Below, one piece after another: positions 16,643 through 45,779 of a stretch of 45,779 nt of DNA. The DNA is from Enterobacter phage ST22, in sequence record OQ957557.1; one strand, written 5' to 3'. The notes beneath the pieces are model-generated. The model was not told the DNA's origin, searched no databases, and worked only from the letters and a program-made list of their open reading frames with translations. Position numbers and translations under genes: made by a program. Every line of letters starts with the position of its first letter. Within the stretch, counting starts at the first letter, position 1.

Positions 16643-16779
16643 GAATGACCGTTATCACCCTGCTTTGTGTAGCTCTGGCAAGCTGCACGGCTCAGCAGGT
16701 GCAGACGGTTGCCACGGTGTGCGATATCGCCGCCAAAGTGCTGGGGTGCGTTGCTGGCACAATGCCACCAGCCAAATAA
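16639..16779 (+). CDS. Small lipoprotein (46 aa), entericidin/Cor-like size class.
   Basis: MRMTVITLLCVALASC has the lipobox LASC. ATGA overlap with the upstream gene. It is below the 60-aa ORF-track cutoff. Confidence 0.45.
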   Translation: MRMTVITLLCVALASCTAQQVQTVATVCDIAAKVLGCVAGTMPPAK

Positions 16780-16783
16780 TTAA

Positions 16784-16808
16784 CCGGCCCACGGATGGGC
16801 CAATTTTT
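16784..16808 (+). terminator. GGCCCA-CGGA-TGGGCC hairpin followed by AATTTTTGA.
   Basis: Read directly, after the small lipoprotein gene. Confidence 0.45.
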
Positions 16809-16821
16809 GAGGATTGACCAG

Positions 16822-17343: not shown

Positions 17344-18068
17344 GTGGAATCGTAGAAAAGGCCCAGGAAAGCAGGACTGTAAACACTAAAACGCGCATCA
17401 CTGCGTTTATCCGTGACGCGATGATTTCCAAAGCGATGGACACGAGCGGAATTAATGACCGTAAAAAGCAGCTGATTGATGATCGCGCTGCACTGGCTGA
17501 GGATGTGCGCCAGTTTGCTCTGCGTCAGTCCGGTCTGACTGATGAAGGGATCAGGGGCATCCAGGCGAAACTTGAAAAGGAATACCCAAGCGGCGGGCAC
17601 GCTCGTGATTTCCTTAAGGTTGATATTTCGTTTCAAACGCATCAGCGCTTTAACGTCAACCTCAACGGGATGGATGTTTATTTGTGGCTGGATGGTCGCC
17701 CGTTTGAGTATCACGCATATGATGAGGGCAATAATACCCACCTCACTAAAGGCATCCAGGACCGCCAAAAAGAAGATACTACAGCGATCTTTGTTCCGCG
17801 CCAGCGCGCCAACATTGCCAGCGTTGAGCTGGGTGATCGCTTTATCAAACTGGACGCTGAAAAAGAGCTGATCGCCAGCAAAGTTGAGCAAATCACAAAC
17901 ACTCTGCGCGCCACGATCAAAAAGTTTGGCACCGTTGAGACAATGCTGGAGGCGTGGCCTGAGGCTGAGGAGCTGCTGCCTAAAGAGCTGCGCCCATCCA
18001 CTGCGCTGGCTATCAGCCCTGATGATCTGAATGCCATTTGTGGCATCCCAACCGGCAAAGCGGAATAA
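17340..18068 (+). CDS. Hypothetical protein (242 aa).
   Basis: ORF. I recognise no domain. Confidence 0.5.
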   Translation: MSGIVEKAQESRTVNTKTRITAFIRDAMISKAMDTSGINDRKKQLIDDRAALAEDVRQFALRQSGLTDEGIRGIQAKLEKEYPSGGHARDFLKVDISFQTHQRFNVNLNGMDVYLWLDGRPFEYHAYDEGNNTHLTKGIQDRQKEDTTAIFVPRQRANIASVELGDRFIKLDAEKELIASKVEQITNTLRATIKKFGTVETMLEAWPEAEELLPKELRPSTALAISPDDLNAICGIPTGKAE

Positions 18069-18108
18069 CCAATTCAGGGCAAGGATGCCCACCTAACGGA
18101 GAAATAGC

Positions 18109-18678
18109 ATGAGCGTAATTTTGACCTACACGGGGCGGCATGTTGACCTGCTCAGCCCAAACCCTGCTGAGTTTAATCTGGTGGATATCGCGCACGCGCT
18201 GAGCCAGATTAACCGCTTCACCGGTCACACCGTCTATCCTTACAGCGTTGCGCAGCATAGCGTGCTATGCGCTCGCCTGGTGCCGCAGGAGCATCAGCTT
18301 GAGGCGTTATTCCATGACGCCCATGAAGCGTACACCGGCGACGTTACCAGCCCCCTCAAGGCGCTGCTCCCTGATTATCAGGAGATTGAGGCCCGCATGG
18401 AGTGCGCGCTGCGTGCCGCGCTTTATCTGCCAGCGGCAAAGAGCGATATTGTGAAGCACGCCGATCTGGTGATGTTGGCAACTGAGAAACGCGATTTGAT
18501 GCCGCTGGATCTCAACCGCTGGGGATGCCTCACCGGCATTGAGCCGGATTATGCAGTTATCAACCCGTGGCAGCCAACGGTTGCGGCGGCAGAGTTTATC
18601 ACCATGGCGCTGCGGTTAATCCCAGAAGCCGATCACAATCTTTGGGTAACTGAGGGCCAGCTCCATGCACGTACTTGA
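18109..18678 (+). CDS. HD-domain phosphohydrolase (YfbR-like 5'-deoxynucleotidase family).
   Basis: H..H ... FHDAHEAYTGDV ... KHADLV motifs. GGAG RBS. Confidence 0.65.
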   Translation: MSVILTYTGRHVDLLSPNPAEFNLVDIAHALSQINRFTGHTVYPYSVAQHSVLCARLVPQEHQLEALFHDAHEAYTGDVTSPLKALLPDYQEIEARMECALRAALYLPAAKSDIVKHADLVMLATEKRDLMPLDLNRWGCLTGIEPDYAVINPWQPTVAAAEFITMALRLIPEADHNLWVTEGQLHART

Positions 18679-19357
18679 TATTTTGGACACGGTAGGCGCT
18701 ACGCTTAACCAGCGCGGCAAAGATAACGGCTATGACGCTGGCGGCAATGATATGGCTGAGAGCAAGGCAGAGGAGCGCAGCGCCGCAGATATCGCCCGCA
18801 TTTACACCGCGTTGAGTGGGCAGGAGATGAGCACGGCTAACGCCTGGCTATTCCTGATGAGCCTCAAGCTGGCCCGCCTTAAGTCGCAGCTGGTGCAGGG
18901 CAAAGATGTGAGTGATACGGTGATTGACCTCGTGGCATATTCTGGCCTTTACGGCGAGGAGATCACAAAGCCGCAGGTTGAGCTGGTAGACCCAGAAACG
19001 CCGGTTAGCTGGCATGAGCACGAGCTGCGCAAGATCGCCAAAATCATGACCGGCAGTGATGCCCCTGGTGAACTGCGTGCGCTGAGCGTCACCGCGCAGA
19101 GCTACGTTGACCGCTGCAAAGCGCTGGCAGCCGGACGGCAGACGCTGAGCGCTGAGAGCTGGGCCAACCTTGAAAAGCTGATGGCAGAGCCAGCCAGCCC
19201 AACCCGTGGCCTGATTGAGCTGCTGGCGCGCCGTCCTGGCAGCATCACCAGAAAGGTGGTTGAGTCTGCGGTTGCCAGCATTGAGGCGGCTATGTGCCCC
19301 CATGATTCATGGGATGAGCGCGGGCATTGTGTTGACTGTGGGAAGCAAGTGCGATGA
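18665..19357 (+). CDS. Hypothetical protein (230 aa). The C-terminus has a Cys cluster (CPHD..HCVDCGK).
   Basis: ORF. It may have a MazG-like helical N-terminus, which I cannot confirm. Confidence 0.5.
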   Translation: MHVLDILDTVGATLNQRGKDNGYDAGGNDMAESKAEERSAADIARIYTALSGQEMSTANAWLFLMSLKLARLKSQLVQGKDVSDTVIDLVAYSGLYGEEITKPQVELVDPETPVSWHEHELRKIAKIMTGSDAPGELRALSVTAQSYVDRCKALAAGRQTLSAESWANLEKLMAEPASPTRGLIELLARRPGSITRKVVESAVASIEAAMCPHDSWDERGHCVDCGKQVR

Positions 19358-19818
19358 GAAAATCAGCAAAAAGTAACGCCCCGCGAGATTGGTCGCCGGT
19401 TGAGAAAGATAACGGCGTTTACTGCGCACCGGCGTGCGGCTGCGGCTGCCTGAAAGTGGACTATGAGCGATGCCACCAGCAGGCTGCGGTGGTCCAGGCT
19501 GAGCTTAAAGAGCTGGGGCTGGGTGATTGGCAGATCCGTGTCTGGGAAAATGGTGATTGGCACTGGGAGCTGTACGCAGAATACTGGCACCTGTCTCCAA
19601 CGGAGCGAGTTAACAGCGAGCTGCCGAAAGGCCACCCAGAACGCAAAACCATTGTGAGCTGGAGCTGCTACACCCTCCAGGGGCCGCAGGGGTTGAGCCA
19701 AATCTGGGAGCGTGGGCCAAATTATATTGAGGCGCTGCACCGCGCCACCGTGCGGCTCACTGAGCTTGCTGAGGCAGTAAAAGCCACCGGCAACGCTTTC
19801 CCACCAGCCAAAAAATAA
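19354..19818 (+). CDS. Hypothetical Cys-rich protein (154 aa).
   Basis: CAPACGCGC motif near the N-terminus. Confidence 0.5.
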   Translation: MRKSAKSNAPRDWSPVEKDNGVYCAPACGCGCLKVDYERCHQQAAVVQAELKELGLGDWQIRVWENGDWHWELYAEYWHLSPTERVNSELPKGHPERKTIVSWSCYTLQGPQGLSQIWERGPNYIEALHRATVRLTELAEAVKATGNAFPPAKK

Positions 19819-19826
19819 TTTCACTA

Positions 19827-19856
19827 AAGCGGTTGACAATCTCAGCCGCTTTTTTG
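19827..19856 (+). terminator. AGCGG-N13-CCGCT hairpin followed by TTTTTT.
   Basis: It overlaps the promoter of the next operon. Confidence 0.5.
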
Positions 19857-19862
19857 TATGCT
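19833..19862 (+). promoter_or_regulatory. Sigma70-like promoter: -35 TTGACA (19833-19838), 18-nt spacer, -10 TATGCT. It is followed by the conserved leader CGAAACGACAACCGATTTAAAGAGG.
   Basis: Read directly. Confidence 0.45.
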
Positions 19863-19901
19863 TACCACATCGAAACGACAACCGATTTAAAGAGGCTCCA
19901 A

Positions 19902-20249
19902 ATGAAGAAATCAACCGCAGTGATCGCCGTATCAGTAACCACTATCTTAACTATTGTCATGATATTTGGCTCATCTCGCACCATCCTGGATCAGGCTTTC
20001 TACATGATTGCCGGTATCTTTTCCATCTTGGTGATTCTGGCCCTGGCCCTCATCATGGGCATTGACCGCACGCCAGCCGCAGCGCCTGCATCAGTAATTA
20101 AGCCGCGCACCATCACCGGAGATATGCCTGATGATGCAGCCATACGAATGGTGAAGATGTATCACTCAACCGGAATGAGCGCTCCTGATATCGCCGTCAT
20201 TACCGGCCTGCATATCAAGTCTGTTAACCTGATTATTGAGCACGCTTGA
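19902..20249 (+). CDS. Membrane protein (2 TM) with a C-terminal HTH-like segment.
   Basis: MKKSTAVIAVSVTTILTIVMIFG...IAGIFSILVILALALIMGI, then ...MSAPDIAVITGLHIKSVNLII. Confidence 0.45.
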   Translation: MKKSTAVIAVSVTTILTIVMIFGSSRTILDQAFYMIAGIFSILVILALALIMGIDRTPAAAPASVIKPRTITGDMPDDAAIRMVKMYHSTGMSAPDIAVITGLHIKSVNLIIEHA

Positions 20250-20346
20250 CATGAAACGAATCACCGGAATTATTGTAACCGCTATCGCCATAATTGGATG
20301 CTCATACGTGGGCACCACTAACGCAGCAACAAATGAGGGTAAACCT

Positions 20347-20565
20347 GTGAAAAAAACTATTTTAGCTGTATGTATTGCCTCCACCAGCCTGCTGGCAGGT
20401 TGCGCACCACTGGCACCAACGCATGATTATCGCATTGATGCCTCATACAATGACTATCAGGCATGGAAAGGCCACGGCCCGCTCCAGCACAATGAGCGCT
20501 GCAAAGGGCTTACCGCTCAGGGCAAATGTGATGCCGGTCAGTGGCCCGTAACCGGAGCCAAATGA
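20347..20565 (+). CDS. Lipoprotein (73 aa from GTG, VKKTILAVCIASTSLLAGC...). Candidate Cor/Llp-like superinfection-exclusion protein. Alternative in-frame start at 20251.
   Basis: GAGGGT RBS 6 nt before the GTG. Lipobox LLAGC. Mature part with 3 Cys. Confidence 0.5.
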   Translation: MKKTILAVCIASTSLLAGCAPLAPTHDYRIDASYNDYQAWKGHGPLQHNERCKGLTAQGKCDAGQWPVTGAK

Positions 20566-20897
20566 TGATGGCACCCGTTCCGATTGAGGAGCGGTGCCTG
20601 GTCATGACCACCCATGGGCGTGCATTGTACGCCCTTTTTTGGGTGCGTGAGGGTGAGGTGGGATGCTGGAATGGCGAGAAGTACAAAGCCCAACAAAACG
20701 GATGGTGCTGCGTACCGGCGAAATTTGGCAACAATCCCCCGCACCTTGATCAGGCTGATGCTGCCGTGTTTACGCCCAATGACCTAATGCGCATTGACGG
20801 GTATGAGAAGCACCCAGAGATCGCTGCGGCACTGGCAAACAAGCGACAAGTTAACCATGACCGGCTGATCGTTGGTCACTACAGGAAAATGAAATGA
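20561..20897 (+). CDS. Hypothetical protein (~112 aa).
   Basis: GGAG RBS. Start overlaps the upstream stop. Confidence 0.45.
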
Positions 20898-20996
20898 TTA
20901 TTGTCCTGTTTTACCTTGATGAGATTTGCCCTGAGTGGGTGATGATCTGGATCTGGCCTGGCTTTGTTCCCCCAACAATTTTGAGAGAGGTTTGCG

Positions 20997-21443
20997 ATGA
21001 GTAACCACCGCGATGATTTAGACGGCGAGCATAAAGCGCCGCACTGGAGTAATCCACTGGACATGATGAGCACCAGTGAGCGCAAAGAGCTATCCCTGCA
21101 AGGCGAGGATATAGCCCGCCAGCTGGATCAGCCATGCGCCAGCGGCACCCGTGAGCTGGGGAGTGATTTTATCCGCTCTGGTGCAGAGCCATGCACCGGT
21201 GAGCGCGTGGATTTTGACCGCACGCCGCAGCAATATGAAAGCCTGATTTATGGCGGGATAACCAATAAGGCCATCACAAGCTCTACCGCCACCGCCGTGG
21301 CCCGTCACTCATTTAAGGATCATGAGATCCGTGAGCTGGTCAATCAGCTTAAGCATGAGGCTGATATGCACTATCCGCACCCGCTGCGCCGTGATGTGAT
21401 TAGCCGCGTAGTGGCTGAGTTTCTTGGGGGCAAGTTTGAATGA
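20997..21443 (+). CDS. Hypothetical protein (148 aa).
   Basis: GAGAGG RBS. Confidence 0.5.
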   Translation: MSNHRDDLDGEHKAPHWSNPLDMMSTSERKELSLQGEDIARQLDQPCASGTRELGSDFIRSGAEPCTGERVDFDRTPQQYESLIYGGITNKAITSSTATAVARHSFKDHEIRELVNQLKHEADMHYPHPLRRDVISRVVAEFLGGKFE

Positions 21444-22210
21444 GCGGGCGTAAATGCGTTGTTTTGCTCTATGACTACCTTGACACAATGGCGTTACCGT
21501 GGCTGAAAGCCGGTTATGACGTGGTGAGCGTGGACGGAAAGCACCCTGAGGGGCTGACTCATGATTTTTATCACCCTACCGGCGCGGTGCATCACAAAAT
21601 TGGGATGTGGTTTGAGGCCAGCCGCACCACGGAGCAGGCCATTGAGCTGGCGCGCAAAATCGGGCCGGAAAACATCATTATGGTTTTCGGTTTCCCAGAA
21701 TGCACCTATCTGACCAACGCGGGCAATCGCTGGTTTGTGCATCCAGATGATAAGCACCTGCCGCGTGAAAAGCAGCGCCCGCACCCGCTATACCCCAACC
21801 GGATGCAGGATCGCCGTGATGCGGTGGAGCTGGCCCGCTTTGTGCCTCTGGTCGCCGCAGCTCTGCATTGCCCAGTGTGGGCGTTTGAAAATCCACGCAT
21901 TGGCTACCTTAGCACCGTATGGCGCGATCCAGATCACTGGTTTGACCCATGCGATTATGGCGGCTACCTGCCGGAGGACCACCAGCACAAAACGTTTAGC
22001 GATGTTTACCCAGGGCGTGACGCGTACCGCAAGCCCACCGGCATCTGGTGCAGCCCTGGCTTTAAGATGCCTGAGCGCAAGCCCGTGCCACCAGTGGGAA
22101 AAGACTTCCCCGGATGGGCAAAATGTGGCGGCAAATCTGACCGCACAAAGGAGATCAGGAGCGCTACGCCGGAGGGTTTTGCTCTGGCTGTTTTCTGCGC
22201 TAACGAATAA
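21440..22210 (+). CDS. Degenerate C5-cytosine-methyltransferase-fold protein. It has motif IV-like GFPEC, motif VI-like ENP and a DYG motif VIII region. It lacks the FxGxG SAM loop and a TRD.
   Basis: VVLLYDYLDTMALPWLKAGYDVV resembles motif I without glycines. ...MVFGFPECTYL... and ...VWAFENPRIGYL... follow. Only 256 aa. Confidence 0.4.
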   Translation: MSGRKCVVLLYDYLDTMALPWLKAGYDVVSVDGKHPEGLTHDFYHPTGAVHHKIGMWFEASRTTEQAIELARKIGPENIIMVFGFPECTYLTNAGNRWFVHPDDKHLPREKQRPHPLYPNRMQDRRDAVELARFVPLVAAALHCPVWAFENPRIGYLSTVWRDPDHWFDPCDYGGYLPEDHQHKTFSDVYPGRDAYRKPTGIWCSPGFKMPERKPVPPVGKDFPGWAKCGGKSDRTKEIRSATPEGFALAVFCANE

Positions 22211-22220
22211 CTGATATGAT

Positions 22221-22256
22221 GCCCCAGATTAATCTCAATTCTCTGGGGCATTTTTG
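22221..22256 (+). terminator. GCCCCAGA-N13-TCTGGGGC hairpin followed by ATTTTTG.
   Basis: It lies between the replication-region genes and the lysis cassette. Confidence 0.5.
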
Positions 22257-22257
22257 C

Positions 22258-22566
22258 ATGGACAAGGATACTTTTATTACCAAAGCGTGGGCGTGGTTTA
22301 TTGCCGCTTGCCTCGCAGGGGCATTTATTAACGCCGGTGCGCAGAAAGATCACACGCGCAATCAGCGGATTTTCTCATTTCTGGGCGCATTTCTGGCGGC
22401 TTATTTTCTGGCCCCCGCACTCCTCCACCATTTCAACATTGTTGGCGAAAGCGAGCTTTCAGCCGCAGGCTTTGGCGTTGCTGCTGTTTGGCAATTGATC
22501 TATAACAAGGCTGTAACTATCATCAACGGCCTTAATATTCCTTTCTTTCAAGGTAAAAAAGAATGA
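22258..22566 (+). CDS. Class I-like holin (3 predicted TM, ~102 aa). An alternative upstream start at 22216 is less likely because it would include the terminator.
   Basis: Three hydrophobic segments. It lies two genes upstream of the endolysin. Confidence 0.5.
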   Translation: MDKDTFITKAWAWFIAACLAGAFINAGAQKDHTRNQRIFSFLGAFLAAYFLAPALLHHFNIVGESELSAAGFGVAAVWQLIYNKAVTIINGLNIPFFQGKKE

Positions 22567-22934
22567 TTCATTCATTTCACATCATCACGGAGGGGCCATT
22601 TTTCTGGTCTACTCCCATGGGGCTTTTTGTAGCTTTCTCCCTCGCATTCTGTTACGCGGTCAATGTCCTGCACCGTGGTATTGATGATTGTTTTTTTGAT
22701 CGTGTCTATTACTGCATCGTGGCGCTGGTGGCCTTTATGGCCTTTATCGTGGGATCAGATCCTACTCACCAGAATCCGCAAGGGATTGGTGCCACTATCC
22801 TGGTAATGTTAGCCTTGCGCGCATGGTGGCGGCTCACGGTCCGGCTCATTCGATTCTGGCGCACAAAACAGCCCCAGAGCACTTTAACCTCATTCAGTGA
22901 TAAAGGAGGCCATCATGGCACTAAAACGCGCTGA
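22563..22934 (+). CDS. Second holin-family/antiholin-like membrane protein (3 TM, 123 aa).
   Basis: Hydrophobic helices and a basic C-terminus. It overlaps the endolysin start. Confidence 0.45.
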   Translation: MIHSFHIITEGPFFWSTPMGLFVAFSLAFCYAVNVLHRGIDDCFFDRVYYCIVALVAFMAFIVGSDPTHQNPQGIGATILVMLALRAWWRLTVRLIRFWRTKQPQSTLTSFSDKGGHHGTKTR

Positions 22935-23301
22935 GAAGCTGGCAGGAGTCCATCCTCGCCTTGTATCGGTAGTAAACGCGGCGGCCCTGCTCCTGCCGTT
23001 TGATTTGTACGTTGTAGAAGGTTTGCGCACCGTGGAGCGCCAGCGTGAGCTGGTGGCAGCCAAAAAGAGCAAAACGATGAATAGCCGCCACCTTAAACAG
23101 AAAGATGGCTATGGGCACGCGGTGGACCTGTTTAACGGCAAGGATTGGAAAGAGGAGAGTTTCTTCCCCATCCACAAAGCCATGATGGAGGCCGCAAAAT
23201 TGCAGGGCGTTACGCTTACGTGGGGCGGTGACTTTAACGGTGACGGTCACAACGTGGGGCGTGATAACTGGGATTGTCCTCACTTCCAGATTGAGCTGTA
23301 A
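22916..23301 (+). CDS. Endolysin, L-alanyl-D-glutamate peptidase (peptidase M15, T5-endolysin-like).
   Basis: AAAGGAGG RBS. ...VVEGLRTVERQRELVAAKKS...GHAVDL...DNWDCPHFQ (zinc-binding H/D pattern). Confidence 0.7.
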
Positions 23302-36729: not shown

Positions 36730-37821
36730 TTATTTCTTACCGAAAGTCACGATCAGACCGCCCAGGCCTTTGGCGACTTCCAGATCTGCACCGCTCAGGC
36801 GGCCCGTAGTGGCGGTGATGCCACGCGGATCGCTGATTTTCCAGCTGGAGGAGTCCAGCACTGTAGCGGTAGATGGAGATGCAGAGCCGGACTGATCCGC
36901 TTTCTGCTCAGTTGCAGGGGTTGGAGAAGTCGCTTTGTCACCGGTGCCCAGAACGCCAGATTTACCCACGAAAGTTTGACCTTTGAGAGCCAGGTTGAAA
37001 TGGTATTCACCCTGCATCAGATCATAAACGTTCTCCTCGCCCAGGATGGTTTGGCTATACATCTGGAGCGGAGAGGTGGAGATGGTGACGGCACCAGGGA
37101 CCAGACCCAGCACGCGGGAGCGCTGTTTAGGCGTGGTGTCAGCGGTTGGAGCATCCAGAGCTGCCACTGCGTCAGTAACCACAAAGCGACGGCCCAGACC
37201 ATCCTGGATCACGGTCACGGTTTCAAACTTAAACAGCTGCTGACCGTTCACGAAAGCATCCTCTGCCAGCAGGTCGTTATAGGTCGCGCCGGACATAACC
37301 CAGCAGCCCAGACGCGCAGCAGCATCACCCAGCTGACCAGACGCTTTGATCAGGTTGCGGATTTTAGGGATATCGCCACCGGTCTGAGCGGTGAAATCGT
37401 AATTCAGGCCCGCAGGAGTCGCAGCCATGAAAGCACCCAGACCAGTAGCCAGGTAATCCTCAATGATCTGGAGAGCAACCTGCTCACCCATCACCGCAGC
37501 CGCTTCTTTCGGGGTTTTGCCCAGGCGGTCCATCAGAGCTGGGGTGACTTTCAGCGGCAGGGTGCCGCCGTCAATCTTGATCGCACGCTCCAGCGCCTGC
37601 GCCAGCTCGGTAGGAGTGAGCTTGCCAGTGCCGTAGGCATTACGGCGGCGCACGAGCTGCTGAGCTGCCCAGAAGGTGCGCTCCAGCCAATCGCCCAGGA
37701 AGTCAGCCGCGCCCATCAGGATGGCACCATTGGAGGCGGTGTTAAACAGGTTGAGGTTAGCCTCAATCACTTTCGTGGTTGCCGTCGCTACCTGCTGATC
37801 AAAAACAGTAATTTGTGGCAT
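36730..37821 (-). CDS. Major capsid protein (HK97-fold-like, 363 aa) with a Ser/Thr-rich C-terminal region.
   Basis: Position after the scaffold gene. Strong AGGAG RBS. Confidence 0.65.
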   Translation of the reverse strand: MPQITVFDQQVATATTKVIEANLNLFNTASNGAILMGAADFLGDWLERTFWAAQQLVRRRNAYGTGKLTPTELAQALERAIKIDGGTLPLKVTPALMDRLGKTPKEAAAVMGEQVALQIIEDYLATGLGAFMAATPAGLNYDFTAQTGGDIPKIRNLIKASGQLGDAAARLGCWVMSGATYNDLLAEDAFVNGQQLFKFETVTVIQDGLGRRFVVTDAVAALDAPTADTTPKQRSRVLGLVPGAVTISTSPLQMYSQTILGEENVYDLMQGEYHFNLALKGQTFVGKSGVLGTGDKATSPTPATEQKADQSGSASPSTATVLDSSSWKISDPRGITATTGRLSGADLEVAKGLGGLIVTFGKK

Positions 37822-37878: not shown

Positions 37879-38565
37879 TTATTCGTTACCCAGCGCGTCA
37901 ATGGCCTGCATTGCAATGCTGCGGTTGTCCAGCTGCTGGCCTGGCTTGTGCTCAATCGGCTGTACGTCCGTTTTGCTGGTGGCTCCAGATGGCCCCTGAG
38001 CTTTGGTCGTTACCAGGAACGGCGCAAAGGTCTTGTTACCGGCAAACTCTTTTTCCAGATCATCCGTGGTGAGCGCTGACGGCTTGCCATCCAGACCCAG
38101 CACGCGGGTTTTAAACTCACCGTTTTCACCCTCTTCCAGGGTAATGCGGCTCTTAACGTGGTGCTCCAGAACTCCAGCATTAGCGCCAAACAATTTAGCA
38201 GCCAGCTGCTGCGCTACGTTACCCACCATCAGCTCATTGAGCTTAGCGCCATAGCGGGCTTTATCCGCTTCATGCGCCTGCTGGGCTGCGGCTAGCTTTT
38301 CGCCCCATGATTTATCAATGGCGTCCAGGTTTCCGGCAAGGCGATCAGCTTTATCCTTCTCAGCTTTCGCGTCCTCCTCTGCCTTACGGCGGGTTTCGTC
38401 GCCCTGCTTTTTCTCATCCAGGAGCTTATTGAGCTTTTGCTCCATCGCATCAAAGTCCGGCATCCCTTCAATCTTAATCTGGTAGCCATCACCTTTGGCG
38501 GTGTACTGCGCTTTCTGCTCATCAGTCAGAGCGTCAAACTCTGCTTTCGTAATCTTAAATTTCAT
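37879..38565 (-). CDS. Scaffolding protein (coiled-coil, Lys/Glu/Ala-rich).
   Basis: Composition and position immediately upstream of the MCP. Confidence 0.6.
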   Translation of the reverse strand: MKFKITKAEFDALTDEQKAQYTAKGDGYQIKIEGMPDFDAMEQKLNKLLDEKKQGDETRRKAEEDAKAEKDKADRLAGNLDAIDKSWGEKLAAAQQAHEADKARYGAKLNELMVGNVAQQLAAKLFGANAGVLEHHVKSRITLEEGENGEFKTRVLGLDGKPSALTTDDLEKEFAGNKTFAPFLVTTKAQGPSGATSKTDVQPIEHKPGQQLDNRSIAMQAIDALGNE

Positions 38566-38662
38566 GGGGTTTTCCTCTGGTAGTCACCTAACGCCGCAAG
38601 CGCTAAATGGTCGCCCCGCAAGGGCTAACGGGCTAATCATACAGCCGGTGGACGGCAACCAC
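38566..38662 (-). promoter_or_regulatory. Conserved structured late leader upstream of the scaffold gene, a near-duplicate of the terS leader (AGCCCG..CTTGCGGG..CTTGCGG..ACCAGAGGAAAACCCCATG), with a -10-like TATGAT and -35-like TTGCCG.
   Basis: I aligned the two leaders at 1384-1460 and 38566-38640 by hand. Confidence 0.4.
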
Positions 38663-38683
38663 AAATTTTTTTGCAATGCGGTG

Positions 38684-38712
38684 TTGACACGTCAACCGGT
38701 TGCCGGTAGATT
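38684..38712 (+). promoter_or_regulatory. Sigma70-like promoter of the plus-strand island: -35 TTGACA (38684-38689), 17-nt spacer, -10 TAGATT. The inverted repeat GTTGAC-AC-GTCAAC overlaps the -35. It is followed by the leader GTAACGACAACCATTTGAGAGG.
   Basis: Read directly. Confidence 0.5.
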
Positions 38713-38750
38713 TAGCGATGTAACGACAACCATTTGAGAGGTTTATTAAG

Positions 38751-39353
38751 ATGCAAACTGAGTTAATCGACGTAGCTATGAAGGCCATCGCGGCCCACGT
38801 AGCAGCCCCTTACAAGCTGCGCATTGCGGAGCTTGAGCAGCAAGTGCAGTCTGGTTTCACTCCTGAGGCTCTGGCGCAAGAGGACCGCGCTGAGCGTGCT
38901 GAGGATGAGCTGGAAATGATGCGCATCAAACTCAAAAACGAGACTGACCGCGCCAATAACGGGATGATCCCATACCAGACGCGCATTAATGATCTGGAGA
39001 AAAAACTGGATCAGGCCCGAAAAATCCAGGGTGGGATGCAGAAGAAAAACGACGCGCTGATCGCTCAGGTTAATGAGCTGGTGGCGCACGGCCCAACCGG
39101 CGCTCTGGAGGAGGAGCTGCGCAAGCATCTGGCAGCAGCCAACGCAGAGATTAAGCGCCTGGAGCAGGAAAACCGCAACCTGCGCGGTGAGCTTTCCGGC
39201 AAGCGCTTTGCCGCAAAAAGCAGCCTGCATAAAGCTGTGGTTGATTCTCAGCACGTTGAGCCTGATACGCGCCCCCAGCCACCTAAAACCGGCGTGGGCC
39301 ACGGTGGCCTGGTGCTTAACATGAACGATGCACGCGAATGGGATCACCGCTAA
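38751..39353 (+). CDS. Coiled-coil protein (200 aa), first gene of the antisense island.
   Basis: GAGAGG RBS. Heptad-rich ELEQQ../KRLEQENRNLRGEL segments. Confidence 0.55.
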   Translation: MQTELIDVAMKAIAAHVAAPYKLRIAELEQQVQSGFTPEALAQEDRAERAEDELEMMRIKLKNETDRANNGMIPYQTRINDLEKKLDQARKIQGGMQKKNDALIAQVNELVAHGPTGALEEELRKHLAAANAEIKRLEQENRNLRGELSGKRFAAKSSLHKAVVDSQHVEPDTRPQPPKTGVGHGGLVLNMNDAREWDHR

Positions 39354-39733
39354 TGAATATTGCACAGATGGCAATGAAATCACTGCGCGCCCAGGGAGGG
39401 CGCAATAAGCAGCGTGTACTGCTGCGCGTGGAAGGGGATCGGACCAATGAGCGCCTTTGGTGGACCGATGAAGATAAAGCGCTGTTTAATGAGCTGGTGG
39501 GTAAAGTCCATGTGAGCGTGCTGATGCATCGCCTGGGCCGCAGCTACGCCGCAATCATTCAGCACGCCAGTAATGTAGGCAAATCCGTGCGCGTCCTGCA
39601 TGTTTGCCGTGGCGGGCATCAGCTGGAGCAGCGCCCATCTGGAAAGTGGGTTTGCCGCAAATGCATCGCTGAGAAAGCCCGCGCTAAACGTCAGGAGGCT
39701 AAACGTGAGAAAGAAGCCAACGCCACACGATGA
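39338..39733 (+). CDS. DNA-binding protein with a GcrA/Myb-like HTH (WTDEDKALFNELVGKVHVSVLMHRLGRSYAAIIQHA) and a C-terminal zinc ribbon (C..GH..x..C..C).
   Basis: Motif-level similarity to the GcrA N-terminal domain (WTDE..L...L....S....LG..S..AVI). An alternative start at 39354 is possible. Confidence 0.45.
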   Translation: MGSPLMNIAQMAMKSLRAQGGRNKQRVLLRVEGDRTNERLWWTDEDKALFNELVGKVHVSVLMHRLGRSYAAIIQHASNVGKSVRVLHVCRGGHQLEQRPSGKWVCRKCIAEKARAKRQEAKREKEANATR

Positions 39734-40004
39734 ATTGATCGGCCTCAAATCGGCGCGCATTATCGCCGGTCTGGGGGCATCCATGAAGGGGCACGCTGAG
39801 CGCACGCGCAAGGCCATTATTGCCTCAAACCAGACCACTGGCATGGTGAAATATTTCCGCAGCATTAACGAGGCTTACCAGTGCGGCGGGTTCTCAGTTA
39901 ACATTGTACGCGCCATCTGTGATGGCAAGCGCGAACATTTTAAAGGCTGGCGTTTCCGCTACGCCACTAAACAGGAAAGGAAAGAGTATGAGCTTAGTAA
40001 TTAA
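39705..40004 (+). CDS. Stand-alone NUMOD1-like HTH DNA-binding protein (~100 aa). GTG start after an AGGAGG RBS.
   Basis: VKYFRSINEAYQCGGFSVNIVRAICDGKREHFKGWRFRYA matches the homing-endonuclease C-terminal DNA-binding motif (F.SI.EA..........I...C.GK......G..W.Y). Confidence 0.5.
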   Translation: MRKKPTPHDELIGLKSARIIAGLGASMKGHAERTRKAIIASNQTTGMVKYFRSINEAYQCGGFSVNIVRAICDGKREHFKGWRFRYATKQERKEYELSN

Positions 40005-40359
40005 AGATCCAATGATGCGCGGCGGCCTGGCCTCTGAGGCTATCCAGCAGGGCTATGAGAAAGCCACGGGCCGCATTCTGACGGTGGCAGAGGGCCGCCT
40101 GCTCACTTACCTGCGCTATTCAGCCTGCAATGGCGGCTACATTGACACGCGCCGCATGAGCAAGCCTGAGCGTCAGACCGTTGAGGATCTGTGTGCCGCT
40201 GGCCTCATGACCCGTGACGCAAACTACAAAATCGGCCTCACGCCGGTGCTGTTTGAGCAGATCAACCTGATCGAATGGGATGTGTACTGCACGCAGGCCG
40301 CTGAGGATGAAACGCAACCGGCTGAGCCGTCACTAGCTGATGGTGGCCTTGATGCGTAA
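39988..40359 (+). CDS. Hypothetical protein (123 aa).
   Basis: GGAAAGAG RBS, ATG at 39988. Confidence 0.5.
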   Translation: MSLVIKDPMMRGGLASEAIQQGYEKATGRILTVAEGRLLTYLRYSACNGGYIDTRRMSKPERQTVEDLCAAGLMTRDANYKIGLTPVLFEQINLIEWDVYCTQAAEDETQPAEPSLADGGLDA

Positions 40360-40573
40360 GGTAGATCGCCGGTTTAAGCTCCAGGACCAGATCACCAAAG
40401 TTAAGGCCGCCCTCACGGGCGTGCCTGATAGCGCTGCCCGCACTATCCTGGTGGAGGTTTTGCTGGATATCTGCGAGCGTGAGGACGTGCATTATTTCAG
40501 CAGTGGATGCGCTGATTATGATGTGCGCATTGACATGCGGCCTATTGAGGAGCGCCACCGTGACCGTAATTAG
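40340..40573 (+). CDS. Hypothetical small protein (73-77 aa).
   Basis: ORF. The start is uncertain (40340 or 40352). Confidence 0.35.
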   Translation: MVALMRKVDRRFKLQDQITKVKAALTGVPDSAARTILVEVLLDICEREDVHYFSSGCADYDVRIDMRPIEERHRDRN

Positions 40574-40838
40574 CATCAAGATGGGGATTCAGGTAACTCC
40601 GCATTACCGCCATGATCTGCCTAATACCATGCGCACAAACCTGCGCCGCACTCGCTTCTGCCGCCTGCGCGGCGTGAAGGATGAGCAAACGCTGCGCACA
40701 ATGATTAAGGCTGGAAGGATTTATCAGCACGTCCTGGAAGGTGTGGGGCTGAGGCAGGTTAAATCCGGCACGCCCACCGCATCAATCACATGGGCAATGC
40801 TGACGGGCCGCATATGGCTCGCTACCGGCAGGAAATAA
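40560..40838 (+). CDS. Hypothetical basic protein (~93 aa from the GTG after a GAGGAG RBS).
   Basis: Arg-rich. Last gene of the island, followed directly by a strong terminator. Confidence 0.4.
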   Translation: MTVISIKMGIQVTPHYRHDLPNTMRTNLRRTRFCRLRGVKDEQTLRTMIKAGRIYQHVLEGVGLRQVKSGTPTASITWAMLTGRIWLATGRK

Positions 40839-40840
40839 CA

Positions 40841-40860
40841 AAGGGGCCAAACGGCCCCTT
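40841..40860. terminator. Bidirectional terminator AAGGGGCC-AAAC-GGCCCCTT followed by TTCTT.
   Basis: Perfect 8-bp stem between the convergent island (+) and head genes (-). Confidence 0.7.
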
Positions 40861-40863
40861 TTC

Positions 40864-41139
40864 TTATGCGTCTGGGTAGACGGTGAAGATAAACGAGCCA
40901 CCACTCACGCCGCCGCTCACAAACGGAGAAATGCCTTTCGGCAGCAGGATGGCATCACCCGCCAGCAGGATGGCATCACCCGCCAGCAGGGTGTGCGCTG
41001 GCACCGGCTGCCCCGCCTGCGGAGCGCTGGCGCTATCACACCAGTAGACCGTTGTAACCGCCTCAATCAGCACCTGAGAAGCGCCACCACCGGCTGCCTC
41101 CCACTCACCTGGCGCAACCTCTTTTAATTCTGTAGCCAT
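40864..41139 (-). CDS. Hypothetical head-module protein (91 aa) containing an in-frame tandem 21-bp duplication (LLAGDAI x2).
   Basis: ORF 13 nt downstream of the Ig-domain gene. Confidence 0.45.
   Translation of the reverse strand: MATELKEVAPGEWEAAGGGASQVLIEAVTTVYWCDSASAPQAGQPVPAHTLLAGDAILLAGDAILLPKGISPFVSGGVSGGSFIFTVYPDA
40942..40990. repeat. Tandem direct repeat: 2.3 copies of the 21-bp unit CAGCAGGATGGCATCACCCGC.
   Basis: Read directly. Confidence 0.7.
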
Positions 41140-41152
41140 GATTCAAATCCTC

Positions 41153-42394
41153 TTATGCTTTCGTGATTGGTGATTCTACAACCACCGGAGTGGTGTTGCC
41201 ATCGCTAGCCACCAGTTTAAACGTTACGCCGCTTTTCAGGTCCGTTGGCACCGTGCCGCTGTATGTGGTCTTAACGTCGCCGCCTGGGGTGCTGGTGCCG
41301 TTATAGAGGATCACATCAGACTCGCCACCCGCTGCGCTAACTGCCACCAGACGGATCTTGATAGGGATCTTACCGCCCATCACATCAATCGTAATAGGCT
41401 GGCCCACCGTGAAGGTTGCCGGTGGATTCAGGAAGCGGATAGGCGCATAAACACGGACGCGGGCCAGGCGGCTGGTTTTCGTCTGAGGCGTGCCAGGGGT
41501 GTTATCCGTGGCGACGGCCTTATAAATCCCGCTATCAGTCTCCACCGCGTTGCTTTTGTTGTATGTATTGGTGGCACCGCCCAGCTTAGTGGTGCCGTGA
41601 TACCACTCAAAGTTGATCGGAGGAGTACCACCAACCGGCGTAACGCTCAGGGAGATGGCGCTGCCAGCAGCGATCTCCTGCCCAGTGGCTGGCAGATCTG
41701 GGTTAAAGCTCAGCGCCCTGATCACGGTTGTGGTGGCGGTCAGCTTGCTGCCGTCTGCATCCTCAACCTCAACGGTGTAATCACCAAACGGCTGGTTAGT
41801 GCCGTCAATCTTGAGCGTGATGAGCTTATCAGTGGTGTTCTCATCGTTGAGGAGCAGGTTGTTAGGGCCGGTGATTTTCGCCACATAAGGCGCTTTGCCG
41901 CCAGCCCATTCAAACGTGCGCGGCACGTTCACGCCCAGCACGGTTTGAGGCTGCGGGCCAGATACCCATGCCAGTGGCACCACCACAACCGCCGCACCTA
42001 CCTCCAGCGTGCTGCTGGCCTCGCCATCATCCGGTGTAAGCTCCCATTTGCAGTATACGCGCCCGTTGCCCTCCATCAGAGGATGGATGATCGCGTGAAT
42101 ACCTCCAGTGGAATCAACCGGCGTGATGGTCGCCAGCTCTGGTGGATCTACTCGCCAGGTGAGCGTGAGGCCTGGGGTGCTGAGCAGCGCCTCATCATCA
42201 GCCACCACGTTGATCTCCCAATCCTGGCCCATCGCCGCCTCTTGATAGCCATCCTCAACGCCTCCCACTGGGTAAATGTGCGTAGTATCAAAGCCTGGAA
42301 TGGTGAAGCCTTTCGGCCCATCAACCACCGGCCTGGCCCCTAACGGGCTACCATCCCACGGCTTACGCGTGAGCGTCATGCGTCGTTTTCTCAT
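41153..42394 (-). CDS. Ig-like (I-set/BIG-type) multi-domain head-associated protein (413 aa). Possible capsid decoration/accessory protein.
   Basis: Classic Ig motif FEWYHGTTKLGGATNTYNKSNAVETDSGIYKAVATDN. Several beta-rich T/S/V-rich repeats. It lies between the MuF-like and small head genes. Confidence 0.5.
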   Translation of the reverse strand: MRKRRMTLTRKPWDGSPLGARPVVDGPKGFTIPGFDTTHIYPVGGVEDGYQEAAMGQDWEINVVADDEALLSTPGLTLTWRVDPPELATITPVDSTGGIHAIIHPLMEGNGRVYCKWELTPDDGEASSTLEVGAAVVVVPLAWVSGPQPQTVLGVNVPRTFEWAGGKAPYVAKITGPNNLLLNDENTTDKLITLKIDGTNQPFGDYTVEVEDADGSKLTATTTVIRALSFNPDLPATGQEIAAGSAISLSVTPVGGTPPINFEWYHGTTKLGGATNTYNKSNAVETDSGIYKAVATDNTPGTPQTKTSRLARVRVYAPIRFLNPPATFTVGQPITIDVMGGKIPIKIRLVAVSAAGGESDVILYNGTSTPGGDVKTTYSGTVPTDLKSGVTFKLVASDGNTTPVVVESPITKA

Positions 42395-43482
42395 TTCATT
42401 GCCTCAGGGTGTTTTCTGTATAACTCAGCGAGGGAGATCATTTTCCCATCGTCGTAAAAGTCGCCCACTTTGAGCTTGCCAGCACGCAGCAGCTCAGCGC
42501 GAACAATGCCCAGCACCTCATCCTGCACCGCGATGCTGGCGCGCTCCTCAAGCCACTGGCGATAATTCATCTTCTCAGGCACTTGCCCATCCAGTGAGGC
42601 GCGGGTGCGCTTGCTCACGTCGCCACCAGGGGCCATATCATCCCAGCTTTTGAGAATCCATGTTTCCACTGACCGGCACCGGAAATGCAGTTTGCCAGGG
42701 CCTGCCCCGTATGGTGGATCGCCCTTCACCACCGGCACAATGGGCTGCTTCATCGTGTAACGGATATGGTCACGCACAATGCACATCGGGCTGGTGCGGT
42801 TGTCCAGCGTAGACAACCAAAGGCGCTCTTTGATCAAGTCCTCATTGGCCTGCGCAGTGCGCTCACGGGCATCAGCAGCCACATGGCTGATGGAGCTATG
42901 CACGATGGTAGCCAGGTTGCGCTCAGCGTTGCCCATGGTGCCTGATGCTTTCAGCTCATTGATGATCTGCATGGTGCTTTTTCCCTGCGTCACACCTTGC
43001 TGTACGCCGGACATAATAGCCCGTGTCACGTCCTCTGGCAGCTTGTCAAACCAGCCCTTTAGCGCCAGATTCTGGATGGGCTTATCCAGTGAGGACTCCA
43101 GCACCTGCTTATGGTCAGCCTGCACCACGTCAGCGCCCTTGATGCTCATGATCTCAGCGATGCCAGGCGTGCCAGCCAGCTGCTGGTGGTAGTAAAGCGT
43201 TTCACGCTGGGCAAACGTCGCCAGCTCTTTCTCCAGCGCCACGTAAATGGCCTGATACTCAGATTTGACCTGAGAGAGGACCGCACGCGCAATGATCTGG
43301 AGCTTTGCCGGTGACATGTTGCCCAGATTCAGACCCATGACCTTTTCCAGCACCCTGGCCCAGATTGACGGCTTAGCCTGCCTCAGCAGCTTGATCATCG
43401 CGTTGGCCTGGCTGTTTGAGTAGCGGAGCAGCAGGAGGCGGTGCCGGACCGCCTCAAGCATTAAGCGCTCATTGGCGCTCAC
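42391..43482 (-). CDS. Head morphogenesis protein, Mu gpF/SPP1 gp7-like minor capsid protein. GTG start.
   Basis: ...LWLSTLDNRTSPMCIVRDHIRY... (Phage_Mu_F-like motif). It overlaps the portal stop by 4 nt. Confidence 0.7.
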   Translation of the reverse strand: MSANERLMLEAVRHRLLLLRYSNSQANAMIKLLRQAKPSIWARVLEKVMGLNLGNMSPAKLQIIARAVLSQVKSEYQAIYVALEKELATFAQRETLYYHQQLAGTPGIAEIMSIKGADVVQADHKQVLESSLDKPIQNLALKGWFDKLPEDVTRAIMSGVQQGVTQGKSTMQIINELKASGTMGNAERNLATIVHSSISHVAADARERTAQANEDLIKERLWLSTLDNRTSPMCIVRDHIRYTMKQPIVPVVKGDPPYGAGPGKLHFRCRSVETWILKSWDDMAPGGDVSKRTRASLDGQVPEKMNYRQWLEERASIAVQDEVLGIVRAELLRAGKLKVGDFYDDGKMISLAELYRKHPEAMK

Positions 43483-45011
43483 TCATCACCGCCTTTGTCA
43501 GCTGGTGGATCTTTATCGTCTGGATTATCCGGCTGCGTCTTGCTGTTTACCAGGTCCATCTGATTGCCCATGAGATCCAGACCAGGCAGCGGAGCCTGAT
43601 CACGGATCTCACCCTCAACCTCCTCAGGGGTTTTCTCATCGCTGATGAGGCCAATGCTCTGCTGGTAACGGATGAAGTTATGCAGGCTGAGCGTGCCATT
43701 CTGGACCATCTGCATGAGCGCAGTGAGCGCTGGCGCGTCAATGGTGGCAACGTCATATTGCTGGGCAATGCCAACCTCACCTTTGCCGTTGACCATCAGA
43801 GAAGCCGCACGCAGGGCTGCGTTAACGCACTTCTCCACGTTACCGGCGCAAAGGCTTAGGATGCTGTTATCCGTCTGGGCCTCAAAACTGGCCTGGGTGG
43901 CGGTTTTGGCACCAGTGCCGCGCTCAATGAGCTTAGCGCCCAGCATCGCCATCTCTTTGGCTCGTGTCTCTTTCAGCAACGTGTTGCCGTTGGTGTCATT
44001 GGCCTGGATGATTTCAGCTTTGGCGTTTTCGTTGAGCAGGATGCCGGTTGTGGCCCCCACCTTACAGCCGTGCTTGAGATACTTCTCAGCCCACGCCTGA
44101 GTAAGACCGGAAATCGCCAGGGTGGGGTTGCTCGCCAGATGGGCAATCTCACATACGTTAGCATCAGCCTGGTAGTGACCGATGTTAAGTGATGCGATAT
44201 CAGCCAGCGGGGCCGGATCTGGGGTTGCGTCGTTATTCTCAGACCCCAGCCAGAAAGCAGGCAGCTCAGTGATCGGCGCGCCGTTAATATCCCGCAGCGG
44301 TGCCAGTGGCGTTTTGCCGGATTTGTTGGCGTTGTCCAGATACTTGCCATTGGTCTGGATATCCTCATGCCATTTGCGGGCATGGGCCACACCATCAACC
44401 ATTCTCAGCTCCAGCCAGATCCACCGCTCATACAGCTGGAAATCATCGGTGCTGGTTTCCTGGTCCTCTTTCCACTTCACAACCACCATAGTGGTTTTGT
44501 CGCCGGTTTCACGCCAGTTGATGATCTGGTCAGCCGTGAAGAAACGCAGCAGCAGCTGGCCCTGAGTGGTCGCCGTCTGCTCTCCGCTGCCGGTAAAGTC
44601 AGGGATAAGCATACCGCGCCCACTCTCCAGCACCTCACCCAGCATATTACGGATAACCTGAGTCAGTGGCTGGCCCTTGCCATCAGCGTTGGTTTCCAGC
44701 TCAGTGAGGCCGCCGCTGAGGGTGATCTCCACTGGCTTGCTGAATGCCACGCCCAGCATCCCAGATTTGGTCCTGCCGGTAGCGTTGAGGAAACGGGCGC
44801 GCATCTTGTAGTTTTTGTATCGATCAATGGCTGCCTCACGAATCTTTTGCTCAGTGGCCTTAAGCTCACCAGGCACCGGATGCGGCAGGTAAAGCTCACC
44901 GCGATATTTGATCTGGTCCTCACCCGCCACACAATCCTTGACGCGCTGCCAGCTGGCAAGATTGCGCATGTATAGCGGGTGCTTAGTGTCTACGCCGGAG
45001 TTTTGCGGCAT
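43479..45011 (-). CDS. Portal protein (510 aa).
   Basis: Size and position directly after terL. Acidic C-terminus. Confidence 0.75.
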   Translation of the reverse strand: MPQNSGVDTKHPLYMRNLASWQRVKDCVAGEDQIKYRGELYLPHPVPGELKATEQKIREAAIDRYKNYKMRARFLNATGRTKSGMLGVAFSKPVEITLSGGLTELETNADGKGQPLTQVIRNMLGEVLESGRGMLIPDFTGSGEQTATTQGQLLLRFFTADQIINWRETGDKTTMVVVKWKEDQETSTDDFQLYERWIWLELRMVDGVAHARKWHEDIQTNGKYLDNANKSGKTPLAPLRDINGAPITELPAFWLGSENNDATPDPAPLADIASLNIGHYQADANVCEIAHLASNPTLAISGLTQAWAEKYLKHGCKVGATTGILLNENAKAEIIQANDTNGNTLLKETRAKEMAMLGAKLIERGTGAKTATQASFEAQTDNSILSLCAGNVEKCVNAALRAASLMVNGKGEVGIAQQYDVATIDAPALTALMQMVQNGTLSLHNFIRYQQSIGLISDEKTPEEVEGEIRDQAPLPGLDLMGNQMDLVNSKTQPDNPDDKDPPADKGGDE

Positions 45012-45025: not shown

Positions 45026-45779
45026 TTAGTACATGAAGCCGATATCAGGCAGAGCCTCAGGCAGAATGTCACGGATGATCGGGAACGTGTAGGCGATGTA
45101 ATAGCCGCCTGCATCGTTGGCATGGTCAAAGCCGCTTTTCTTGTCCGGCTCGCCAGTTTTCTCATCATAGATCTGATTCTGGAGACACTTAGAATACCAC
45201 GGGCAGAGTAAATCATTCACAAAATAACGGCGTTCACCTGCCGCATTGAGGAACATCGCGTTTACTGCGTTGATGCGGCTCTTGACGGCTGGGTTAGTCT
45301 GCTCATAGTGGACCATGAAGCCCGCACCCTCCAGCAGGGCAATATCAGAGGTGGATGCGCCGCTGGTCTTGCGGTTTTTGCCTGAGCTGTCAGGGTAAAC
45401 GTTGATTTGGTGGTGCCCGTTGCCGTAGCGCTCAATGATGGCCTCAATCATATCCGGCGTATCATAGCGATCCACAAACTCAGCCACTGCATGTGGCTTT
45501 CCGTCACGGATAACGTGAACGATGGCGCTCATGTGCTGGACGTTAAAGTCCATCCCGATAAACAGCGGCTCACCTGGCTGCACCTCCTCACGGGAGCGGT
45601 TGCCCGCCACATCATAGGTGTAATAGATCGTGCCTGATGCAAGGTTAGTGAACTGGCCCAGGATGTAAGCCTTGACCAGCTCAGGCGGGTAGGAAACCAG
45701 CAGGCCAGGCACGTAGTCCAGAGGCAGGTAAGGGTTGCTCAGGGTGGCAGCCTGCACCATCTTGTAACCTTTGGCCTCA
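45026..45779 (-). CDS. terL: Terminase large subunit, C-terminal nuclease part. It continues from 1..632 across the circular junction, giving a combined protein of ~462 aa.
   Basis: ...LFIGMDFNVQHMSAIVHVIRDGKPHAVAEFVD... The ORF is open to the window end and in frame with the window-start segment. Confidence 0.8.
   Translation of the reverse strand, partial: EAKGYKMVQAATLSNPYLPLDYVPGLLVSYPPELVKAYILGQFTNLASGTIYYTYDVAGNRSREEVQPGEPLFIGMDFNVQHMSAIVHVIRDGKPHAVAEFVDRYDTPDMIEAIIERYGNGHHQINVYPDSSGKNRKTSGASTSDIALLEGAGFMVHYEQTNPAVKSRINAVNAMFLNAAGERRYFVNDLLCPWYSKCLQNQIYDEKTGEPDKKSGFDHANDAGGYYIAYTFPIIRDILPEALPDIGFMY

Follow-up and report, generated by a model that had tools for sequence, protein, structure and literature searches.

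Introduction

The morons of lambdoid and HK97-like phages are extra genes that lie between conserved late genes and carry their own promoter and terminator. Here we analyse a block of this general kind in Enterobacter phage ST22, the complete 45,779-bp genome of which forms the window of this study: inside the virion genes, which occupy the minus strand, a plus-strand block at 38684–40861 combines a sigma70-like promoter, a 10-nt leader, six coupled genes (g1–g6) and a bidirectional terminator. As in morons, this block is additional DNA that separates two genes found side by side in relatives, the conserved head module does without it and, at the level of sequence, the block has its own sigma70-type promoter and intrinsic terminator; furthermore, a single-gene moron is found at the same junction in a related locus (L090). 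It differs from morons in having six genes rather than one or two, in its orientation opposite to the surrounding genes, in a GC content equal to that of the genome and in being fixed across its lineage; since ST22 appears to be virulent, expression from a prophage does not apply.

Further likenesses are found to anti-defence operons with an associated helix-turn-helix (HTH) regulator (acr-aca type) and to early counter-defence gene clusters. Like these, the block appears to have a strong promoter of host type, with an inverted repeat that overlaps the -35 box, and it combines small and fast-evolving orphan genes with genes for HTH-like proteins. Its cargo is likewise replaceable, with a Sequestin gene in the operon of one sibling locus (L007) and a DNA methyltransferase gene in a counterpart of the block in Jedunavirus phages; here the differences are that no protein of the ST22 block matches a known anti-defence family, that the HTH-like genes of ST22 lie mid-operon instead of at the 3' end and that the inverted repeat is not kept in another sibling (L003). 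One protein of the block, g3, aligns to the C-terminal DNA-binding HTH of free-standing HNH homing endonucleases (I-HmuI, PDB 1u3e), from which it is distinguished by the lack of a nuclease domain in g3 or its neighbours and by its presence in all siblings rather than in a patchy manner.

We find that the block is a real and conserved accessory operon, fixed in the ST22 lineage, which sits at the junction between the packaging, portal and Mu-F genes on one side and the scaffold, capsid and tail genes on the other. On present evidence it represents a known kind of feature – a cassette of accessory genes that stands on its own within a late region – the content of which is uncharacterised, and not a demonstrated new system; a literature search returned no paper on ST22 or on the Jedunavirus cassette. 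Phage accessory operons that are read by the host polymerase are a recurrent source of new counter-defence and host-takeover proteins, which is where the interest of this block lies: it is compact, is kept throughout a small lineage and encodes six protein families to which no function has been assigned.

Results and Discussion

The block is an addition at a late-gene junction

The six genes, which are the only plus-strand genes inside the virion block of ST22, are each preceded by a ribosome-binding site or joined to the gene before by an overlap of stop and start codons. Promoter, leader, genes and terminator were all found on the strand and in the places given by an initial annotation made from the sequence alone, although the starts of g2, g3, g5 and g6 had to be corrected to those listed in Table 1. 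In order to compare the junction, we used 80 IMG/VR loci that encode a related capsid protein, together with annotated phages. The gap between the Mu-F and scaffold genes measures 28–92 nt in 78 of the 80 related loci, versus ~3.8 kb in ST22, and the two genes are likewise adjacent in the phages Scapp, phiES15, IME1369_01 and pAEv1818: the block is absent from related head modules, in agreement with the accessory nature that had been proposed for it. The remaining two loci are a MED16-like one with a gap of 668 nt and L090, in which the gap is ~400 nt. Pantoea phage MED16 itself, the nearest annotated phage (capsid identity 50%), has two opposite-strand genes at this very junction, one of them annotated as a putative endonuclease and both unrelated to g2 and g3, whilst Serratia phage Scapp has an annotated terminator there. 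The empty or variable junctions of the relatives, the Scapp terminator, MED16 and L090 together indicate that two late transcription units meet here at a permissive boundary. The block thus seems to occupy a natural border between operons, and not the inside of a head operon as had been supposed.

Two observations were made beside this comparison. In L090, which is of prophage type, positions 7900–8320 hold one AT-rich, co-directional gene of 84 codons with a terminator, which is a classic moron. In ST22, the genes for the Hoc-like immunoglobulin (Ig) protein and the 91-aa product (40864–42394, minus strand) are also extra with respect to MED16, Scapp and phiES15. We also considered g2 and g3 as halves of a split MED16 "endonuclease" and rejected this, there being no similarity between them and, according to Pfam, no nuclease in the MED16 protein.

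Conservation among ST22-like loci

Nucleotide-level relatives of the island, or of 23 kb of the window, were not found in a comparison with 50,697 phage records, and IMG/VR scans with g4, g6 and the capsid protein gave no close relatives. A search of 5.8 billion sequences returned, as relatives of g2, g4 and g6, only proteins from ST22-like metagenomic contigs. Conservation was assessed in eight ST22-like metagenomic loci (L003/L004, L005/L006, L007, L008, L096 and L097/L098), all of which have g1–g6 in the same place, order and orientation. Pairwise ratios of nonsynonymous to synonymous substitution rates (dN/dS) range from 0.10 to 0.86 across the six genes and, being below 1, indicate purifying selection and show these to be real coding genes of the plus strand. 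The island proteins evolve rapidly: where they can be aligned to their counterparts in L008, the most diverged locus, their identity is 36–69%, versus 67–85% for structural genes, and for both g5 and g6 two types of allele are seen, which reassort among the siblings. Several members are disrupted in one sibling or another: g1 carries a frameshift in L003 and an interruption in L008, g3 is fused by a frameshift to g4 in L005/L006, and the zinc motif of g2 is absent in L008; only g4, g5 and g6 are intact in every locus. Nothing indicates that the six genes act together as one undescribed system, and g1, g3 and the g2 zinc motif are each disrupted in some of the siblings.

Transcription signals of the island

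A consensus scan recovers the consensus-like sigma70 promoter that had been described for the block: it matches the consensus at 10 of 12 positions and has the top score of three promoter-like matches between 36 and 43 kb. Its -35 and -10 boxes are retained across five ST22-like genomes, L003 having TACATT. The -35 box is overlapped by a 14-bp palindrome, GTTGACACGTCAAC, which is exact in ST22, L007 and L005, has one mismatch in L008 and is lost in L003; to judge from its sequence and position, it is a possible operator.

At the island promoter, none of the eight ST22-like loci, not even L008, departs from the leader AACGACAACC. It occurs in four exact copies in the ST22 genome, and if one mismatch is allowed there are 10 matches versus 1.3 expected. 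Each exact copy follows a -10 box at a distance of ~11 nt and precedes an AGAGG ribosome-binding site, the other three being downstream of promoters at 4601 (minus strand), 8972 (plus strand) and 19874 (plus strand); amongst the units that it precedes is the operon with the genes for the single-strand-binding protein and helicase. An extended -35 box, GGTTGACG, was noted in 13 copies in the window versus 0.9 expected (sites include 1787, 1815, 2875, 4645, 4877, 7519, 8930, 12662, 12704, 30444, 36647 and 38690); many of these copies form the -35 box of sigma70-like promoters and several occur in inverted pairs. AACGACAACC is nearly the reverse complement of GGTTGACG, so that the four leader promoters are bracketed by inverted half-sites ~45 bp apart, an arrangement that could provide the operator logic for a regulator. 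The leader and this box offer a handle on the organisation of transcription in this phage group. As a wider signature, GTTGAC-N(32-44)-AACGACAACC was tried and discarded: an IMG/VR scan gave single scattered matches, consistent with chance.

At the other end of the block, the hairpin AAAGGGGCC-AAAC-GGCCCCTTT has U-rich tails on both sides and a predicted folding free energy of -16.6 kcal/mol on the plus strand and -17.2 kcal/mol on the minus strand. The annotation of a bidirectional terminator is hence sound, with the correction that its stem, reported as a perfect one of 8 bp, comprises 9 bp and includes A-U pairs. The terminator core GGGGCCAAACGGCCCC is identical in seven sibling loci (L003–L007, L096 and L097).

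The six proteins

The six products were compared with Pfam, PHROGs, PADLOC and NCBIfam; the latter two returned nothing beyond coiled-coil noise and the homing-endonuclease tail of g3. For g1, the only Pfam matches are of coiled-coil type; it bears no similarity to the ST22 scaffold protein, has no tblastn match in phages and is under purifying selection (dN/dS 0.23–0.34).

The second protein, g2, has an isoelectric point (pI) of 10.8 and a C-x3-H...C-x2-C zinc motif, and its gene has a dN/dS of ~0.10. It matches phrog_323, "transcriptional regulator", at 1.8e-6 and has no Pfam match at E values of up to 1. A profile of the g2 family gave sub-significant matches to structures in the PDB, namely to the GcrA DNA-binding domain (E 0.24), to SANT (E 0.47) and also to PHD-type zinc fingers. 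The initial description of g2 as a GcrA/Myb-like HTH protein is accordingly tentative, drawing on these sub-significant matches and on the name, SANT/Myb-like, that RefSeq gives to a homologue, gp74 of phage KB2.

In case of g3, the proposal of a stand-alone NUMOD-like protein is supported: it matches phrog_20162 at 1.1e-9, the PADLOC HEase model at 4.8e-8 (model positions 114–175 of 178 only) and PF22083 at 1.7e-5, the last with 24.7 bits and thus just below the gathering score of 27, and it aligns to residues 121–171 of I-HmuI at E 0.87. Judged by these alignments, g3 is a NUMOD-type HTH, equivalent to the DNA-binding C-terminus of HNH homing endonucleases but devoid of their nuclease part. 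Searches of Pfam, PHROGs and PADLOC detected no nuclease catalytic domain (HNH, GIY-YIG or LAGLIDADG) in g2, g3 or any other protein of the island.

The product of g4 models as an acidic winged helix. For g5, the sibling alignment reveals a conserved C-terminal motif, HY..G..D.DVRID.RPIEER, and none of the four family collections contains a match. A full HMMER search with g5 found two true distant homologues (P0042 and P0043), which are encoded in one RecT/YqaJ phage and one T1-like phage, both unrelated to ST22. They sit in runs of genes for proteins of 48–190 aa without Pfam matches (L012, 6700–11500; L014, 7300–13000), which are typical small-gene accessory arrays; two further candidates, P0044 and P0045, were rejected as low-complexity artefacts. 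The model of g6 (predicted local distance difference test score, pLDDT, 68) has an alpha/beta fold with no fold match in the PDB and with weak matches in BFVD to uncharacterised small phage proteins only. Sequence profiles of g4, g5 and g6 gave nothing credible against the PDB, and as far as sequence comparison goes g1, g5 and g6 are orphans.

Related cassettes and their cargo

The sibling L007 has an additional gene of 68 codons (10884–11090) between g6 and the unchanged terminator, with a GTG start that overlaps the stop codon of g6. Its product matches PF21825 (the anti-Thoeris sponge Sequestin) at 1.5e-19, with 70.1 bits versus a cut-off of 24.8, whilst no ST22 protein matches this Pfam family. 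Of 13 members of the Sequestin family that were tested, 10 are inhibitors of type I Thoeris, and binding of 3'cADPR is found with purified SequestinA (bioRxiv 10.1101/2025.07.12.664507). Since this gene is coupled to g6 within the operon, the operon is in L007 used for the expression of a proven counter-defence gene, and the anti-defence role suggested for the block thereby gains indirect support.

The only homologues of g2 outside the ST22 group were found in Jedunavirus, which are Klebsiella myophages, with 35% identity over 77 aa that span the Myb-like and zinc module. The Jedunavirus protein, which is KB2 gp74 ("SANT/Myb-like DNA-binding" in RefSeq), has 212 aa and an extra N-terminal winged helix of TrmB/MarR-like type. 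Like g2, it is encoded in a cassette opposite to the structural genes (KB2 gp71–gp76, JustaPhage gp21–22, VLCpiM12a gp48–50), with the g2-type gene at the head, at a junction between a neck gene and a virion structural gene; the cassette of KB2, as read from its sequence, also ends in a bidirectional terminator. The cargo past the g2-type gene varies: small orphans and an HTH protein in KB2, almost none in JustaPhage and a DNA methyltransferase in VLCpiM12a. Unlike the ST22 block, these cassettes belong to another phage family and occupy a different junction, and their other genes are not shared with ST22. A conserved DNA-binding protein with replaceable cargo is, by analogy, the pattern of regulated accessory or anti-defence operons, and the g2-type protein is a candidate for the regulator. 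It would go much further to claim that this protein defines an unrecognised class of regulator-led, opposite-strand late-gene cassettes in phages as unrelated as the ST22-like siphoviruses and the Jedunavirus myoviruses, and that in ST22, with the acidic winged helix g4, the small neutral g5 and the very basic g6, it forms a new module which reprogrammes transcription or neutralises host defence by an undescribed mechanism; we consider this distinctly unlikely.

What the island may do

The reading that we favour, with a probability of roughly 0.5, is that the block resembles a moron, as an accessory operon that the host polymerase transcribes, probably early, and whose products act on nucleic-acid transactions of host or phage or on host defences, with g2 as the likely regulator. 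In such a scheme, host sigma70 RNA polymerase would start at the island promoter and produce a transcript with the common 5' leader of the phage, from which the six genes would be translated as a coupled chain. The terminal hairpin would stop both this transcript and the converging late transcript, leaving head-gene expression undisturbed. The products would be small cytoplasmic proteins and not parts of the virion, three to four of them with predicted nucleic-acid-binding folds, and would most likely act soon after infection on DNA, transcription or defence functions of host or phage. The Myb-like zinc protein would be the most likely regulator of the cassette and the genes downstream its replaceable cargo. 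As possible counter-defence proteins, g4, g5 and g6 are reasonable candidates for screening against defence systems of Enterobacter and related hosts.

Several points weigh against this reading. None of g1–g6 matches a known anti-defence, Acr, Aca, defence or host-takeover family in the four collections searched, and both the Sequestin and the methyltransferase cargo belong to other phages and not to ST22. The structure models are of moderate confidence (pLDDT 66–68) and were built from 5–7 sequences. An essential phage function would likewise account for the presence of intact g4–g6 in every sibling. Neither is there a compositional sign of foreign origin: the island has 56.4% GC versus 55.6% for the genome, with third-position GC of 0.59–0.66 as in neighbouring genes, and from this and its fixation across the ST22 lineage we conclude that it is not a recent acquisition. 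Finally, AACGACAACC is also found ahead of short units, near 4.6 kb and 19.9 kb, that are made up of small genes and lack recognised replication genes, so that the leader does not establish early timing. Of the initial claim that the leader is common to the early operons, what stands is that the island shares it with the replication operon; AACGACAACC marks strong host-type promoters of ST22 rather than a proven temporal class.

The main alternative, which we think on balance unlikely, is that the block is a late-gene switch: g2, perhaps with g4 and g6, would be produced from a host-type promoter and would then act on the divergent region 38566–38700 and on other late promoters, thereby activating the operon of scaffold, capsid and tail genes. 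The island promoter stands back-to-back with a stretch of ~115 nt (38566–38680) that is nearly invariant in five ST22-like genomes, more so than the neighbouring genes, and includes a weak -35 and a good -10 candidate, the latter being TATTAT in L008. We regard this stretch, on its sequence, as a candidate late promoter or structured 5' untranslated region (UTR); the promoter was read by eye, with no match in the scan, and no alignment was obtained between the stretch and its counterparts in MED16, Scapp and phiES15. Moreover, the scaffold operon needs a promoter of its own because of the terminator at the end of the island, the palindrome GTTGACACGTCAAC lies ~60 bp upstream of the candidate scaffold start site, and no other late regulator was recognised in the ST22 genome. 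The presence of g2 homologues in opposite-strand cassettes within the structural genes of Jedunavirus and the intactness of g4–g6 would fit such a switch as well. However, related phages have the same head module without such a cassette, L008 has the proposed regulator without its zinc motif and L003 has lost the palindrome, the island proteins diverge more quickly than core genes and swap alleles, and many sigma70-like TTGACG promoters are already present on the late strand. On the minus strand past the candidate -35 and -10 boxes (TTGTGG-17-TATGAT), we also noted two small hairpins with CTTGCGG loops, followed by the ribosome-binding site of the scaffold gene.

That the block is instead a graveyard of selfish elements, the remains of free-standing homing-endonuclease or mobile-gene insertions that a permissive junction has taken up and that now do little, appears highly unlikely. 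The homing-endonuclease DNA-binding domain without nuclease in g3, the opposite-strand gene pair with its annotated endonuclease in MED16 and the disruption of g1, g2 and g3 in some siblings would all be accounted for in this way; however, all six reading frames have dN/dS below 1, conservation extends to the promoter, leader, ribosome-binding sites and terminator, the distribution of the block is not patchy, as each of the eight siblings has it, and the MED16 genes bear no relation to g2 and g3, with no nuclease there according to Pfam. There is a still smaller chance that the genes encode head-assembly or accessory virion factors on the other strand, for example g1 as a second scaffold-like coiled coil. 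The location amongst head genes and a weak match of g1 to phrog_1660, "PmgS-like head morphogenesis" (E 0.007), point in this direction, but that match is at noise level for coiled coils, g1 is unlike the scaffold protein and is broken in L003 and L008, and the cassette is absent from related head modules; Pfam and PHROGs give no confident match to a head-assembly or structural family for any of the six proteins. Least probable of all is superinfection exclusion, one of the roles initially suggested: moron-like cassettes of temperate phages often exclude superinfection, but g1–g6 are devoid of segments of membrane-spanning or lipoprotein-like type (Kyte-Doolittle values in 19-residue windows do not exceed 1.16) with which to block the entry of competing phages, and no lysogen is expected as an integrase or repressor was not found in ST22. 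An accessory operon thus remains the reading that we prefer.

Genome setting and further observations

The proteins around the block correspond exactly to WKV24460–WKV24469 of ST22. The features of the island and its surroundings, with the opposite-strand cassettes of Jedunavirus, are collected in Table 1. The plus strand from 4980 to 23301 encodes a primase, a Sak4-like protein, the single-strand-binding protein, the helicase, RusA, methyltransferases and a holin. The large terminase gene, on the minus strand, appears to span the ends of the record (45026–45779 and 1–640); from the gene order of L003 and the table of open reading frames (ORFs), we infer that the deposited genome starts inside terL. 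Scans of the window with Rfam and for tRNA genes gave no matches.

Table 1. Coordinates of the ST22 island, of neighbouring features and of Jedunavirus cassettes.
Feature	Position	Strand	Description
Conserved non-coding region upstream of scaffold	38566–38680	-	candidate TTGTGG (38664–38659), 17-nt spacer, TATGAT (38641–38636)
Island promoter	38684–38712	+	-35 TTGACA (38684–38689), 17-nt spacer, -10 TAGATT (38707–38712)
Palindrome GTTGACACGTCAAC	38684–38697		14 bp; overlaps -35 box; read from sequence
Leader AACGACAACC	38722–38731	+	in 5' UTR; followed by ribosome-binding site GAGAGG (38736–38741)
g1	38751–39353	+	200-aa coiled-coil protein, WKV24462.1
g2	39353–39733	+	126-aa basic protein; start in TAATG overlap
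g3	39705–40004	+	99 aa; GTG start
g4	39988–40359	+	123-aa acidic (pI 4.6) protein, predicted winged-helix-like, with acidic tail
g5	40352–40573	+	73 aa; 40352 most likely start (77 aa if start at 40340)
g6	40560–40838	+	92-aa very basic (pI 11.7) protein, predicted alpha/beta; GTG start
Bidirectional intrinsic terminator	40840–40861		9-bp stem, U-rich tails on both sides
Small terminase	625–1383	-	ORF table and family matches
Capsid	36730–37821	-	family match; tail genes continue down to 23521
Scaffold (phrog_206)	37879–38565	-	family match
91-aa ORF	40864–41139	-	ORF table
Hoc-like Ig protein	41153–42394	-	413 aa; ORF table and family matches
Mu-F-like head gene	42391–43482	-	ORF table and family matches
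Portal	43479–45011	-	ORF table and family matches
Jedunavirus cassette, L095	4222–6013		opposite to structural genes
Jedunavirus cassette, L099	2608–3457		opposite to structural genes
Jedunavirus cassette, L100	2608–4426		opposite to structural genes

Next to the island, the gene called at the position of the Ig protein varies amongst the siblings, its product having 209 aa in L008 but 307 aa in L096. As for the 91-aa reading frame, it is interrupted by an in-frame TAG in L007 and in ST22 contains a 21-bp tandem duplication (40939–40980) that repeats the residues LLAGDAI. Further away, a collagen-like tail-fibre gene with internal repeats of 72 and 9 nt (1830–2795, minus strand) lies between a leftward unit of small genes and the small terminase gene and adjoins two TTGACG promoters. 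Lastly, the stretch 4700–4880 between divergent promoters is of odd composition, with TA repeats, (ACTT)4, (ACT)3 and a C-rich run (CCCCTCTCCCCCTCCCCCC), and may represent a genome end or an origin.

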